Positions 13,680 to 48,079 of a DNA stretch of 64,000 bases are shown piece after piece. This DNA is from a virus (taxonomy: Duplodnaviria > Caudoviricetes): the IMG/VR virus record IMGVR_UViG_2061766007_001346, positions 64,001 to 128,000 of that record; one strand, written 5' to 3'. The position numbers and the translations under genes were made by a program. Positions within the stretch are counted from its first letter, which is position 1. Every line of letters starts with the position of its first letter. The notes beneath the pieces are model-generated. The model did no database searches, had not been told where the DNA came from, and worked only from the letters and a program-made list of their open reading frames with translations.

Positions 13680-16600
13680 TTAATTTAAAACGAAATAAAG
13701 AGTTCTAGGATCACGACTCTGTGGCAAGGCACTAACTACTTCGATACGGTCAACAATATTACTAACATTATAAACGCTATCTTTTATAGTTGGTGTTTTA
13801 ATAACTTGATAAGTATTACCATTAGTTACATCTTGGAATTGCAATTGTTGCGAACTTAACACCGCGGTATCTATAAATTCATTACCGGTACTTCCTAGCT
13901 CAGAATGTACTTGTACCATGCCTAGTGAAAGTTTTGCATAATTTTCTAAGTTAAACATGGTATCTACACCAAGATCGTTTCTAATTTCATCTGGTGAGAG
14001 TGTTGATTTTTGAGTTCATGTGCTAGTCCCACCATCGCCGTTACTTCCAACTGTAACTGCTGTTGTAGTAATGCCACCTTCGCTACCAATAGTTAATACA
14101 CCGTCAATTGTACCACTTTCTGCATGAATTGTACCAGTAATTTCAGCATCGTCGGAGACAAGTTTACCAGTATTATCAACAGTAAATGGAGCGGTAGTTA
14201 GATCTCCCGGAGTTTCTGGTTCACCAGCCCAGATACGAACGTTGCCAACGGTATTTGCACCAGAAGCAGAAGCAACATCTGCACTAGATGCCATACCAGC
14301 AACAACAGCGTTTCCATCGGTGATAATAACCTGTTTTGCGGAAAGTTGATTGATATATGCGGAATTAGCCAGCATTGTTTCAAACCAACTATCGCTTTGA
14401 GGAGTATATGTTTCCCAATGACTAGGATCTGAAGCAGGACTTGCGGGCTTATTATTCGAACAAGTTACATCAGCCTTACATTTATAATAAGAAGTCGTTT
14501 GTCCAGAAACATATCTTACAACATCGAGACAATATATACCGTTAACAGCAGTCGTTCCACTAGAGTACTCGTTCTGAGGATCGGTCCAATCGGAAACTCT
14601 TACAACCTTACCGTCAAGATATTGATATGTTACCACAGTTTCACCGGGCTCACCCTGTTTACCAGGATAAATTACACCAACAGGTTCTGTATCAGTAACA
14701 GTTTGATTATAACCAACAATCGCCAACACGTTGTTCTTGACAACAGCAGATAGCTTCGTCAGATCGAGTATACCATAACAGCTGTAATCGTCGTAATTAC
14801 GCTGATTATCATCGGAATTATAGAATCGAACTGTGAATACAGCAGATGCTGCATTACCAACCCGATTGCCACTTTCGTCAAAGTATAATGTTGCATCAGA
14901 GACACCAGCGGAAACACTTCCACCATATTCTGTGAAGTTGAATGTACTTCTATCGTTGCCGGACGGTGTGGCGATATAATTCTTAAGATATACTAACTTC
15001 TGAGCACCACCATCAAGAGAGTAGCCAAGAACCATATTTCTTTGTGCATCCAGACTATTCGTGCCCATATAACCAGAAATCATAACCTGATTTGGACTAT
15101 AGTCTGTAGCATCCTCGCCACCCTTCTTAATTGCGGCAGGCATAGTATCAAGAACCGTCACAATCTTTTCTGCAAATACAGGAGAGATCGTTATCGTTTC
15201 AGAACCACTATATCCATCAGCATTAGAAGCGGTGATGGTCAGTACAAGCGTGTCGTCCAATATTGCCGGATCTGTAAACGTAACAGATAGCGAAACACTA
15301 TAGTAGATATGTTCGGAAATATATGCATATGCCGGGCGAATCGTTACTGTACCAGTAGATAATGGAAGCGTAACATAGTTGTTGCTTAACGTCTTAGTAA
15401 GATTTGTATTATTGAATGATACGAAATCTATACCGTTAATTGCAACATTGTCAATTGTACGAAGGGTCCCGCTATTATCGTACATAGCAAGGAATCCAAG
15501 ATTGAACGTGGTCTTCAGCGATGCATTCTCCACTCTATCTACGTTATTAATCATCGTCGGATGATTCTGATTCTCAACGCTTAATGAACAAGCCTTTGTA
15601 ACACGAGGGTCTATACCAGCCCAGAGAACTGCGTCTTGGAAGTCTCCCCATTCGCCACCAGTGCCGTCATCGTGGTATTTACGCTTGGAAGCATAAACGA
15701 ACGGACGAGCGTCGGTAACGCCAGGATTGTTATCGGTTGCCTGCAGACCAGGTTCTACCCAAGCGTTAAGAGCGTTCTTATATTTGCAGTAAGGACGTGC
15801 CTCATCTTGAGTATGATATACTGCAAGATTGATAACGGTTAACTTACCACTATTATTGCTCTGAATTAATCGATGCTGAGCGTCAGTTACAGCAAAGAAT
15901 ACATATTCAAGCCCATCGCCATCTCTACCATTCTCGCCAAACTTACTCCAGATAACAGGCGTGCTGAATGAACCATACACAGGATTATTGGAGGCGTCGT
16001 AGGTGATATCACGCTGAGATACATATTCGTACTTATTGACTGCATCAACACCTTCGGGATTATCTGACCAGAACGAAGACGGCGTAGTAACACTTGCGTT
16101 ATCGCCCGGAATGAAATCCTTATGCTGATTATTTACAACAGTCCTATTAGTATCTCCGGAAACATAGCCCTTCGTCTGATGAATTGCATTGAGTAATTCA
16201 GTAGCGTTAAGCTCGTGATCATACAGATGATATATATATTCTACATAGTCACCGTCTTTACCATCTTCAGCGTAACGATTATATATTTGCGGTTGGGACC
16301 ACTCTCTTAGAGTTGGATTGTCAAGCTTTCTTACGGAAATCCAGCAAGGCATTCCGTTAGCAGGAGTAATAGGGGTATCTTCCCACGTTTCATAAGTAAT
16401 AGTTGCGGGAGTTGTGCTATTATCAACAATACGAACTCTTGGAACAACGTTATACTGATAGTAGTACTCGTTCAGATTCGTAGTTACCGTAGAACCGTCG
16501 GGCAAATCAATAGCACCAACATTAGATGAAGTAGGAGTTGTAGGTCTTGTGGCGCTTAGTATAAAGATTTGCTCCATACCGAAGCCGTCATCACCAGACC

Positions 16601-19600
16601 ATTTTGCCCAAGTGTAATCGGTAATCGTAGAAGAATCTTCTACATTGAAGTCAACATACATACCAACATACTTACCAGGGAATTCACCAATTTGCGTGAA
16701 CGGTTGTGTAACTGGAGTAAATGCGAGACGAACCTGTCCAACACCCATTACCGTACATAAAGCACCGTTAGGAGCTTCGTTAGCAAACTTCTGATGGATG
16801 TAGGAACTTTCACCAGCAGGACCTTGAAGGGGACCAACACATCTCCAACCGTATACAAGACCATTTGCACAGTCATCAACAGCGGGAGTTTCTCCGGTAT
16901 AGACCCACATATCAGTATGGTCGATAATATTGTTACTATCAAATACAGTTACCAAGATGGAAGCACCAACCGTTGCAACAGAATTGAACGCGGCCATATT
17001 GGACTTCCAATTACTGGTTGCTTCAGTACAGCCTTCGTATTCAGTAATAAGGGCGTTTACAGTACCAATAGGAGCAAAGGATGTACCATCCTCACCTCGC
17101 CTACCAGTTTCACCTTTAATCTTAGCATACGTCCAGCCACTCCAAGTACCACCGTTTCTGACAGCCGTTGCCATCCATACAGGGGAAGGAATGTCATTTT
17201 CGTCGCCCCAGACAACATTGCCATCTTTTAATCCAGCGGCAGTTCTAAAGGCAACTTCGTCAACACCACCCAAAGCAGTATCATCAATGTATGCATCGTT
17301 GTTAAGATTAGGGAGCGGGTATGCGGTCTTGGCATTCTCTTCGGCACTGAATTCAATCTGGATTCGAGAAGAGTCGCCCAGCATACAAGGTGAAGACCAG
17401 CCAGTATCAGGAACATCTCCAATCAAGTTGTAGGACATCCAAACTGGAGCAGAACCACTAGGGATACTATCACTCCATTCGACATTAACTGTACTTCCAT
17501 TAATGGTAGTTACAATGTCAGAAGGGTCGGTATCGTTACTTAGTACAGCTGTAGAAAGGTTAATACTTGTTCTTGCAAAAATATATGATGTATAAACGCT
17601 TTCGCCATCTACAACATGTCTGTTTCATAGAACAGGAGTAGAGAATGGTTTCCAAACTTTATTGACACCATCATATTTTCTTATAGAAACGAACTGATAA
17701 GGAGTTGAACTGTTAACATTTAACGGTTCGTCGGTCCAGTTTCTATCCCAACCAGTATCGGACTGCCAGCCTTCCTCGGTTATACCAGTCGTTGCATTAG
17801 GATTGGTTCCACCAGGAATCCAGTCGTTTTCCTGATAGTGAGGCGGTACGACAAATTCATTATCCTCAAAGTCTTCTACAGTAGGAGGATATACAGCGCC
17901 ACCAGTATTGTTAAGAGTAACAGCACGGGTTACGCCGTCAATAGTAACATCGCTTTCTCCAGCGAGTCTATAGATGTATTCGACACCGTCGCCATCAACA
18001 CCGTTTTCTCCCCACATGGACCAGATAAACGGAGTGCAGTAGGCACCCCACTGGCCAGTTTCTCCATCCTTGATACGCATGGACGCACCTTCGATTTCGT
18101 GATCCACATCAATACCCTGAGGGTGATTGTACCAGTGTCCAACAGAATCTTCAGGTTCGGTGCTCGGAGGAATATTAACCTTATCTGCATTAAATGCGGC
18201 TAAATCAGCATATAGTTTGAAGATGAATTCAACGCTATCTCCATCGACACCAGGATTGCCATCTATACCAGAAATACATATAGGCGTTTGCCAATCAGAT
18301 GAGGCAATAACTGTACCATCGGAATCAAATGTAGCAGAAGTCATCCATAATCGACTACCATCGTTTGGATTGTTTTCCGGACTTTCCTTCCAAGGGCTGC
18401 CAGCAGCTAACGTAAGCGTGTTAGTAGATCTATCTCATGCACAACCAGCGGGTTTAGCAGGAACGGCAGGATCACCAGTACCCGGCTTATACCAACGATA
18501 GACAAGGAATGTTCTGGAAGTTACCACATTGAACTGACCGCCAGCAAGATTATCGATACGCGCATTAAGTGCGTCAATACCGGCCTGATAAGTAGCTCTT
18601 GTAACATAGTCGGTCAAATCCTGAATTGTATCGCTGTCAATGAACTCTCCTACATCGGTCCAAGTAGAACCATTGTTATAAGAGATATATAGATGATTTT
18701 GTGCAGGAGTTCCAACACTACCATCACCAATCTTTATCTTCAGCGCAGTAAGATCTGCGGAAGTACCGGAACCACCACCACCAACAGCACCGACTGGTTG
18801 CCAAGAATCTGCAACACCGTTTCGATATGAGATATAAAGATAGTTGTCCTCAATCTTAAGTTTGATATTAAAACCGTTAGCAACTAGATCCTGAAGTGTA
18901 GCGGAAAGATTATTAAGTTCGGTTTTAGTAGCATATGCAGATAAATCCTGATTTCCGCCGCCACCGGTGATAACGATATTTCCACCTTCGGTAATCTTTT
19001 GGCCATTAATCGTAGCCATGTCGGAATCCTTAAGGAAGCGTGCATCAGATTCAGCCTTTGTGTATGCATCCGGAACTTCGGATTTCTTGGCGTAATCGCT
19101 TAGATTTTCTGCAGTAAGATAAGCACCCTTGGTCTGATATCTTAAATCAGATTCAGTCTTGCTGTATGCATCAACAGGAGCGATGCTATTGACGGCAATT
19201 TCCAGTTGACGTAATTTATTATTAATTTGATTTAAATCTATTTCGTAATTGGCGAAAGGAATTTTACCAGCATCAAACAGAATATCGCCTAATTCAACGT
19301 CGGAAATAACTCTATGACCTTCGGCAGTGCTATCGTATGTGGCATGAATAACCTGTCGGTGTCCAAAGTGATAATAACCATCGTCATCGGCCCAGAACGA
19401 GACTCCTGCAAGAGCCAGGTTCATCAAGTCTGAGATGTGAATTAGGTTGTTCCATTCTTCATCGCCTTCGCGTTTCCATTGAATGAAATTAGCAGGTCCT
19501 GATTCTTCGTCAGAACGCTTAGTATTATCGGAATCAACTCTAAGGATAAGAGGTTTGTAATCCTGTGCACGAAGATCGTCTAAATTAATTGGTGCAGGAG

Positions 19601-20027
19601 CACGATTGCTTCTCGTTCTTTCCCAAACGATTGTATTATTAATTCGTTCCGGTCTCCAGGAAGGAGGGGTTAGATCCGTAGTGGCAGCAATACGTTCTCC
19701 GTCAGCATAAAGAATCACCTGTCCGTTGTCGAATCTTGCGGTAATTCTAGGAGTACGTCCAGGAATACCCTGAGCTCCAGTAGCACCATCGTGTCCGGTC
19801 TCACCTTCACTAACAATCTTCATTAAGTTGACCTGATCTTCTATATGAGCTGCAGTAGTAACAAGTTCCTGCACTGCGCACACATAAAGATTTCGGCCAT
19901 CGGTAACAAAGTCTACGTCTGTTCCATTATTATGGTAAGTAGCTCCTTGCTGATACACATAAAAGTTTAGTTTGGGCACAGAAACATTAGGGCTTGATGC
20001 GATATCTCTTGTTGTAGTTTTAATCAT
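13680..20027 (-). CDS. Giant tail/fibre protein, ~2115 aa (3 TGA=Trp)
   Basis: Four track ORFs share one frame; repeated G-x-DG-D-x-VE(Y/F)I(F/Y) / W-x-x-x-P / TPVIW modules and short collagen-like triplets. Confidence 0.85.
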
Positions 20028-20205
20028 AATAGTCTAAAATTTGTTTACGTTCTTTTAAACTTAAAGTATTACTATCTAATAACTCGTAGGCATTCATCAT
20101 ATCTCAGATTTCGCATACCATACCATCGGTAAGTACGTGTCCTACTTGTAAATCTCTCAGGTTCTCTATAAATTTATCATAAATTAACATCAAAAGTCTA
20201 TCCAT
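20020..20205 (-). CDS. Small hypothetical protein, 61 aa (TGA=Trp)
   Basis: MDRLLMLIYDKF...EI*DMMNAY...; fills the gap with overlapping start/stop junctions. Confidence 0.6.
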
Positions 20206-47173: not shown

Positions 47174-47332
47174 ATGGTAGATTTGAAAGTTGGAGATAAG
47201 ATAGACTTCGTTGATACAAAACACGTTCTTATAAACGGAGTCAAACACAAAATAGTTATTAAGAAACATCCTCTCCTTACAAGGACTGGTATTATGTTTA
47301 TAGCTTATTGTGAGTTTGTAAAAGACCGCTGA
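47174..47332 (+). CDS. 52-aa protein ending at TGA inside the hammerhead core (73 aa to TAA 47395 if TGA=Trp)
   Basis: MVDLKVGDKIDFVDTKHVLING...EFVKDR; below the ORF-track size cut-off. Confidence 0.55.
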   Translation: MVDLKVGDKIDFVDTKHVLINGVKHKIVIKKHPLLTRTGIMFIAYCEFVKDR

Positions 47333-47403
47333 TGAGCTAGTGAAATTCTAGCGAAACGATGCCCAAGTAGGCGAAAGCTGAGCACTTGGGTTTAAGTCCG
47401 GTC
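47324..47403 (+). ncRNA. Hammerhead ribozyme, type I
   Basis: Stem I gaccg/cggtc, core CTGATGA, stem II gctag/ctagc, GAAA, stem III, GTC cleavage triplet at 47396-47398. Confidence 0.85.
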
Positions 47404-47452
47404 ATATGATCGAAACATTAACTCATTTATTAACATCTAATTTAAAAGCCTT

Positions 47453-47845
47453 ATGGAAATTTTCGCAAAGGAAGGCTGGGGTATCCTCGCCGTGTCTGCC
47501 AAACTCAACATCAACGACCAGATCATTCTGTGTCAGGTTCTTGACAATCTTGATCGTTTCGACGGTTTCGTCGAGAAGATCGACGCGTGGGACAAAGAGG
47601 CAGAATGTCACACGCTCCAGGAGCTTAATGAAGAGACTGGCTGTTGGGAGCCGTCTCAGTGGGCCAAGGACAATCCTCGTCCTGGTGACCCGATGGAAGA
47701 AGCTCACAAGATGGGCTTCGATCCAATGGAAGAGCAGCGGAAACTGCGCAAGTTCTGCCGTAAGCTCTGCCATATCAAGCTTGGTGAGAGCAACATCTTC
47801 GACGATGAGGCCCAAGAGGCCAAAGTCGAGAAGGTCGCAAAGTAA
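47453..47845 (+). CDS. Hypothetical acidic protein
   Basis: 130 aa, strong codon bias. Confidence 0.7.
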   Translation: MEIFAKEGWGILAVSAKLNINDQIILCQVLDNLDRFDGFVEKIDAWDKEAECHTLQELNEETGCWEPSQWAKDNPRPGDPMEEAHKMGFDPMEEQRKLRKFCRKLCHIKLGESNIFDDEAQEAKVEKVAK

Positions 47846-47851
47846 CAATCT

Positions 47852-48076
47852 ATGGCACACGTTGTCACACTCTCAGAACAGCTGGAAACCGTCACACAGG
47901 CAATCCGGCCTCTCATCGATCGCCAAGAAGGCGATGACCCCGAAGGAGCAAACGGCCAGTGCAAAGCTGCAATAGCCGAATGCGAAGCTCTCGTAGCCAT
48001 GCTCAACGAAGTGAAATCACAGATTGAGTATGAGATTCTTGAACAGTGCCCAACTCCAGATCCTTACTGGGATTAG
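47852..48076 (+). CDS. Hypothetical helical protein
   Basis: 74 aa. Confidence 0.65.
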   Translation: MAHVVTLSEQLETVTQAIRPLIDRQEGDDPEGANGQCKAAIAECEALVAMLNEVKSQIEYEILEQCPTPDPYWD

Positions 48077-48079
48077 CCT

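Follow-up and report, generated by a model that had tools for sequence, protein, structure and literature searches.

A predicted type I hammerhead ribozyme overlapping the UGA stop codon of a small gene in a TGA-recoded crAss-like phage

Hammerhead ribozymes located between phage or prophage genes cleave polycistronic RNA, which has been shown experimentally for examples other than the one described here (Perreault et al. 2011, PMC3088659). Stop-codon recoding has been described as a late-gene timer in phages, crAss-like phages included (Borges et al., bioRxiv 10.1101/2021.08.26.457843; Yutin et al. 2021, PMC7886860). In the open-access literature we found no paper that mentions both hammerheads and crAss-like phages. 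The locus analyzed here lies in a 64,000-nucleotide stretch of phage DNA (the window, whose numbering is used throughout unless genome positions are stated), corresponding to bases 64001-128000 of one 177,170-bp contig with an overlap of ~700 bp between its ends.

Direct reading of the + strand revealed a type I hammerhead at 47324-47403, with stem I open and stems II and III closed, and the same assignment was obtained from the MFE fold and from the family model R1 described below. Stem I is formed by five Watson-Crick pairs, read directly, between GACCG (47324-47328) and CGGUC (47399-47403), and encloses the catalytic strand CUGAUGA (C3 to A9) at 47329-47335, which in the frame of the upstream ORF reads (CG)C UGA UGA with a tandem stop at 47330-47335. 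Stem-loop II (47336-47352) has 5 bp, the loop UGAAAUU and the closing pair G10.1-C11.1 (G47336-C47352), and is followed by GAAA at 47353-47356. Stem III (47356-47397), together with the GUC cleavage triplet (47396-47398), was identified by direct reading and in the fold; it has merely 2 bp beside the core (A47356-U47397 and C47357-G47396), then a 3x4 internal loop, an 8-bp helix (47361-47368/47384-47391) and a GNRA-capped tip, GGC-GAAA-GCU, at 47370-47379. C17 corresponds to C47398 and the predicted cut is 3' of C47398. The conserved hammerhead core is canonical at every position (C3 U4 G5 A6 N7 G8 A9, G12 A13 A14, A15.1-U16.1 and H17), three helices are predicted around it (I, 5 bp; II, 5 bp; III, 2 + 8 bp), and the MFE structure of 47320-47410 (RNAfold) is exactly this three-way junction. 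A hammerhead had been called here in a sequence-only reading of the region, and the complete core, the three helices, the GUC site and the fold bear that call out.

Could such a structure arise by chance, with no ribozyme behind it? A type I scanner run at very lax thresholds gave one match in the 177-kb genome where 0.3 were expected. When the 5' half was taken as given and the downstream 150 nt were shuffled, closure by a GUH triplet plus a 5-nt complement occurred in 0.3% (Watson-Crick pairs only) to 1.6% (G-U allowed) of the shuffles. Rfam speaks for chance, as nothing was found at gathering threshold and the best match, to Hammerhead_3, reached 14.8 bits (E = 5) against a threshold of 48.5. 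However, ten clear loci of the family described below (L008, L029, L056, L015, L011, L042, L066, L067, L009 and L071) also stay below the gathering score of every Rfam hammerhead model, so the negative Rfam result is uninformative for the window. With the core, the three helices and a family-specific loop jointly present, and with the fold, the scanner expectation, the closure shuffles and the R1 score all against it, chance resemblance is effectively refuted and we give it next to no weight.

The family was collected with a 5'-half pattern derived from the window itself (core, N4, UGAAAUU, N4, CGAAAC), which matched 69 IMG/VR viral contigs. Of the 74 pattern matches (window counted), 73 complete a type I hammerhead in which stem I has 5 bp and the cleavage triplet is GUC or GUA, and the stem-loop II of the window is identical to that of an unrelated IMG/VR contig (L008). 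Traits of the family are an A before an open 5-bp stem I, a 5-bp stem II, the loop UGAAAUU, a closed stem III of variable length and GUC or GUA at the cleavage site, and the window has all of them, including every feature that the pattern had left free: the four inner pairs of stem II, stem I, the A at -6, GUC and the closure of stem III. The G10.1-C11.1 pair is invariant in 53/53 sequences. Covariation is strong, with 97.9% of cells paired, 282 compensated cells and none of 500 shuffles as good, while slid controls were paired at 32-37%. A covariance model (R1), built from eight family sequences (alignment A3), found the window site as its sole match in the phage genome (40.1 bits, E 1.4e-7), a score that is high in part by construction because the pattern behind the family was taken from the window. 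R1 also offered a short alignment ending at 47377, which we rejected since it deletes C3 and mispairs stem I; the model shortens the 3' end in the same way and at equal score in the long-stem-III members L017, L023 and L039, which marks the shortened alignment as an artefact of R1. Inserts that lengthen stem III are common among family members. These sequence comparisons place the ribozyme of the window in a large family of phage type I hammerheads with strong covariation, which goes undetected at Rfam thresholds.

Two observations on other family members were made along the way. R1 revealed arrays that are unseen by the exact pattern, with ~10 copies in L071:5973-12699, 6 in L066:5950-9172 and 3 each in L017:3366-5254 and L044:13558-14645; the window phage has a single copy. 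On the minus strand of L011 (7107-7387) a match to the Alphaproteobacteria (two-piece) tmRNA, cut off at the contig end, is followed ~54 nt downstream by a type I hammerhead, and ~20 IMG/VR contigs are near-identical there (L012, L013, L019, L021, L022 and others). Ribozymes of the L011 type may shape an end of a phage-borne permuted tmRNA.

Upstream of the ribozyme, a small + strand gene (47174-47332) runs from the ATG at 47174 to the TGA at 47330-47332, comprising 52 codons and ending CGC TGA TGA, so that its stop codon is U4-G5-A6 of the catalytic core. The sequence-only reading had placed an ORF from 47174 onto the CUGAUGA core; its coordinates are right, and the ORF proved to be a real gene with homologues. 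The clusters P0004 (90% identity), P0005 (85%) and P0006 (71%) all end in ...EFVKDR, and a profile search of 1.8 billion representatives added one distant 53-aa homologue (P0011) with a different C-terminus. AlphaFold2 predicted an all-beta protein (mean pLDDT 90) of four strands, the last reaching residue 50. This model had no match in the PDB by Foldseek, and Pfam and PHROGs gave no family for eight neighbouring proteins, the 52-aa protein among them. A paralogous relationship to the upstream gene was considered and rejected on comparison. Because the homologues are 52-53 aa long and the final predicted strand extends to residue 50, homology and model together indicate that the protein ends naturally at KDR and that UGA 47330 is a functional stop. 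The last six codons are doubly constrained, as they are invariant in the protein and also form the 5' strand of stem I and the conserved A-rich flank.

This UGA stop lies in a genome where TGA is also read as sense. The phage has a GC content of 38-39% and encodes a tmRNA and 15 tRNAs, one of them a suppressor tRNA with the anticodon UCA at genome position 145708-145779. Two further tRNA-like matches were returned by Rfam at L005:8126-8197 (48 bits) and L005:4965-5022 (41 bits, partial), which lie at about 135.9 kb and 132.8 kb of the genome and were not called by ARAGORN. In the left arm (minus strand) TGA is the sole interruption of long frames; at 13680-20033, one 2117-codon frame contains 3 TGA only, and under code 11 it falls into three exactly abutting ORFs. 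The long late-arm frames hold 155 in-frame TGA in 26,153 codons. A TGA-TGA pair is absent among these 155 sense TGAs, and a search for a +4-base signature separating sense from stop TGA found none. In the right arm, a 450-aa protein matches the SPFH protein of Bacteroides phage crAss001 at 67-70% identity, and Pfam searches with eight further right-arm ORFs returned only LysM and Metallophos. Based on the SPFH match, the UCA tRNA and the TGA-only breaks in late frames, we conclude from the sequence that this is a crAss-like gut phage with TGA recoded in its late genes, where Trp identity is assumed.

The + strand arm that carries the ribozyme can be read in the standard code and probably belongs to the early or middle genes. 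The premise of the sequence-only reading, a code switch, was thus reasonable in view of the suppressor tRNA and the giant late ORFs broken by TGA alone, but our count did not reproduce its statement that the right arm has only two TGA stops, that of the small gene among them. Between 45.3 and 96 kb of the window, 100 + strand ORFs ended in TAA (61), TAG (23) or TGA (16), as counted from a crude ORF call; of its TGA endings, several are not real stops, being either spurious ORFs or sense codons. Stops of the TGA type are rare here, though there are probably more than two.

If TGA is translated under code 4, the frame of the small gene runs through ...KDR-W-W and 19 more residues to a TAA at 47393-47395 (+ strand); this TAA falls within the stem III internal loop, 3 nt short of the cut site, and is directly followed by GTC 47396-47398. 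That the frame would stay open with TGA as Trp up to a TAA just ahead of GTC had been noted before, and the code 4 translation returned the same coordinates. Conservation of this frame in relatives was the proposed check, and here the outcome was negative. The sole readable relative is P0008, a 64-aa member of the P0004 cluster (90% identical) that was called in code 4 and ends ...KDR-WW-VAENCDDIIV, so its tail after WW has 10 residues compared with 19 unrelated ones in the window. As the P0008 tail closes 10 codons after WW, the frame is not kept open through the ribozyme. The residues of P0008 can only be encoded with a 5-bp helix immediately 3' of the core, where stem II would sit; compared with the window, four pairs of this implied stem have both bases exchanged and its loop has one extra base. 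GAAA after the stem was obtained in 0 of 73,728 back-translations of the P0008 tail, and judged from its protein sequence P0008 may have a broken catalytic core or a rearranged region. DNA of a relative was sought in several ways, in collections from which records very close to the window may be missing: viral contigs searched with the 47406 ORF, P0003, the 52-aa ORF and the 222-aa gene gave no related loci; alignment A1 had no match in metagenome and genome contigs; a degenerate DNA pattern (EFVKDR plus core) had none in viral, metagenome or genome contigs; and blastn and tblastn against GenBank phages found no relative's DNA.

In longer RNAs a second structure competes with the hammerhead. 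The MFE fold of 47240-47470 contains a candidate competing hairpin of 16 bp and -14 kcal/mol at 47301-47339 (+ strand), which pairs the last ORF codons with the 5' strand of stem I, the core and the 5' strand of stem II, and in contexts of 123-231 nt the predicted MFE fold is this hairpin and not the hammerhead. For 47290-47412 the competing fold has -33.2 kcal/mol compared with -29.4 kcal/mol for the hammerhead-constrained fold, and extending the RNA to 60 nt upstream (47264-47412) widens the gap to 5.3 kcal/mol; the energy model leaves out the tertiary contacts that stabilise active hammerheads. Among shuffled versions of the upstream 60 nt, the advantage of the hairpin was equalled in 4.2% when codons and in 9.6% when nucleotides were permuted. 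Across the family the median gap is about 1.3 kcal/mol and only 3 of 47 members reach 5.2, the window being among these top 3. A competing hairpin does not belong to the common design of these ribozymes. In the window's transcript the hairpin is made first, and it falls within translated sequence.

The exact 5' end of the predicted 3' product is a + strand hairpin, CGGUC-AUAU-GAUCG (47399-47412), of -4.7 kcal/mol and z -2.1, with no unpaired 5' nucleotide, and hairpins close to the product's 5' terminus are found repeatedly across family members (mean z -1.17, with 26% below -1.64). The next gene on the + strand, P0003 (47453-47845; 130 aa), was identified by its translation and its homologues P0009 and P0010, and its ATG is 54 nt past the cut. 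P0003 is the first gene of a GC-rich + strand block (47453-49866; 50-62% GC versus 36-40% upstream), whose end lies close to another gene and to a strong hairpin resembling a terminator (49109-49131). A longer ORF at 47406-47975 (+ strand, 189 aa) was rejected as the downstream gene, because it has no relatives, is of odd composition and overlaps 47453-47845 in another frame; it is probably spurious, an artefact of the GC-rich block. The ribozyme itself is sense-oriented between same-strand genes, in a 120-nt spacer, ~2 kb into a + strand unit that begins at the strand switch near 45.3 kb.

Given the hairpin at the 5' end of the predicted product, the expected 5'-OH end and the GC-rich genes directly downstream, we consider it likely that the locus is a genuine type I hammerhead serving as an mRNA-processing site between the small gene and the GC-rich block, and that its overlap with the stop codon is incidental. 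The transcript would fold into the three-way junction and cut itself after C47398, giving an upstream RNA with the small gene and the ribozyme body that, by the chemistry expected of such a reaction, should end in a 2',3'-cyclic phosphate. The downstream RNA would carry a 5'-OH at C47399, and its first 14 nt could refold into the terminal hairpin, from where an AU-rich 54-nt leader would lead to the ATG at 47453. In bacteria, 5'-OH ends and 5'-terminal hairpins slow 5'-end-dependent decay. The cut would in this way uncouple two mRNAs, of which the downstream one is probably shielded from decay at its 5' end, a stabilising role that we propose for the ribozyme. The GC-rich block is probably strongly expressed.

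Several of our results sit uneasily with a processing site. Stem III is weak next to the core, the hammerhead is not the MFE fold in longer context, back-translations of P0008 do not yield core, stem and GAAA together, and the Rfam gathering threshold is not reached, though clear family members fail it too. The first three of these, together with the presence of a single hammerhead in 177 kb when family members often occur in arrays (~10 in L071 and 6 in L066), would also fit a decaying or inactive relic, that is, a former boundary element of a cassette whose fold is now outcompeted, which has no useful cut rate and which overlaps the stop codon by accident. Against a relic, no loss is seen in the invariant core, in G10.1-C11.1 and A15.1-U16.1, in the five Watson-Crick pairs of stem I or in the conserved A that precedes stem I, a state that would be unlikely without selection or very recent acquisition, and the product hairpin and the gene context match the pattern of the functional family. 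We therefore regard a relic as unlikely.

To place the overlap of stop codon and core in context, 32 family hammerheads with a clear upstream ORF were surveyed. The stop begins 8-10 nt before U4 in 23/32 members. Three ORFs (those of the window, L064 and one L066 copy) terminate at the core UGA, and two at the UGA in loop II. L066 is a standard-code phage, with code 11 ORFs covering 94% of its sequence. An ORF entering CUGAUGA will read UGA-UGA in one of three frames, and a further 19 codons without TAA or TAG are expected, by our estimate, in roughly half of such frames. The other members with this arrangement, L066 included, and the one-in-three odds of the frame identify the stop-on-core layout as a minor recurrent variant of a habit already known from phage hammerheads, and the family sequences suggest that the overlap is most likely a by-product of the tight packing typical for these ribozymes and not a dedicated sensor. 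Nearly every family sequence in alignments A2 and A3 has a UAA(A) motif 8-9 nt ahead of U4, most often in the role of stop codon; the TAA of this motif is in frame with the core UGA-UGA in 12 of the 32, which gives three stops within five codons, and in the window the UAA is present (region 47319-47323) but out of frame with the ORF. The motif may also be a structural element of the ribozyme.

A regulatory role of the overlap was nevertheless the central inference of the sequence-only reading, according to which ribosomes would take different positions on the ribozyme under the two codes, so that self-cleavage and the fate of the downstream mRNA could sense the code switch. The geometry of the overlap and the recoding of TGA stood up in our analysis; the sensing itself fared less well, given the same layout in the standard-code phage L066, the unconserved tail and the lack of tandem sense TGA. 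The comparative data, limited as they are, argue against code sensing. The competing hairpin allows a more explicit version, in which translation or the code gates the ribozyme: in untranslated RNA the hairpin at 47301-47339 would hide the core, and a translating ribosome would melt it. Under the standard code, termination at UGA 47330 would free the 5' half to pair with its stem II, stem III and stem I partners, by then already transcribed, leading to the cut, whereas under suppression ribosomes would travel to UAA 47393 and cover the cut site and the 3' strand of stem I, the hairpin would re-form and cleavage would fall, and the fate of the downstream mRNA would change upon the code switch. 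Such gating draws on a real overlap geometry, a UCA suppressor tRNA and sense TGA in late genes, a hairpin that beats the hammerhead fold by 3.8-5.3 kcal/mol (top 3 of 47 members), a P0008 sequence that in our reading is still compatible with the hairpin, and alternative partners for both strands of stem I. However, shuffled sequences match the hairpin advantage at the rates given above (p about 0.04-0.1, marginal), most family members are without such a competitor, the stop-on-core layout is also found under the standard code in L066, and the read-through tail is conserved in neither length nor sequence. Read-through would in addition require two successive suppressions, for which the 155 sense TGAs offer no tandem precedent. 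Gating of this kind is in our view quite improbable. Still more doubtful is a full two-state switch, with termination at the core UGA giving cleavage and a stabilised downstream mRNA early, and UGA-UGA read-through letting the hairpin silence cleavage once the suppressor tRNA has accumulated; if this were true, no RNA device that reports the genetic-code switch of a phage would have been known before it.

Taken together, our results describe what is new here, a hammerhead ribozyme in a crAss-like, TGA-recoded phage that is packed against and onto the stop codon of the upstream gene, and they place it in a large family of phage type I hammerheads invisible at Rfam thresholds, which amounts to a systematic annotation gap. 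The layout can serve as a test case for whether ribosomes that terminate on or near bacterial and phage hammerheads control self-cleavage, and the window phage itself supplies both conditions, a UGA stop or UGA read-through.

Like the described phage type I hammerheads (PMC3088659; Rfam clan CL00010, RF00163), the ribozyme of the window has the 13-nt core, the three-way junction and GUC, and sits, sense-oriented, in the spacer between genes of a polycistronic unit. It differs from them in being a single copy and not part of a pair or array, in a 42-nt stem III with 2 bp before the internal loop and a score below Rfam thresholds, and in residing in the genome of a TGA-recoded crAss-like phage. 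The 69 IMG/VR contigs have in common with the window the short 5-bp stem I, the loop II sequence UGAAAUU and the A that precedes stem I. As in phages with a recoding timer, the genome encodes a suppressor tRNA, in-frame TGA is concentrated in the structural/late arm and the block holding the ribozyme is compatible with the standard code. In contrast, the timer model concerns the translation of late proteins, and we know of no RNA element described to read out the code switch. With the hammerheads of L064 and L066, finally, the window shares an upstream ORF that ends on the core UGA; it differs from both in that the UGA of its phage is also a sense codon later in infection, and for this reason the same ribosome could either stop on the core or cross it.
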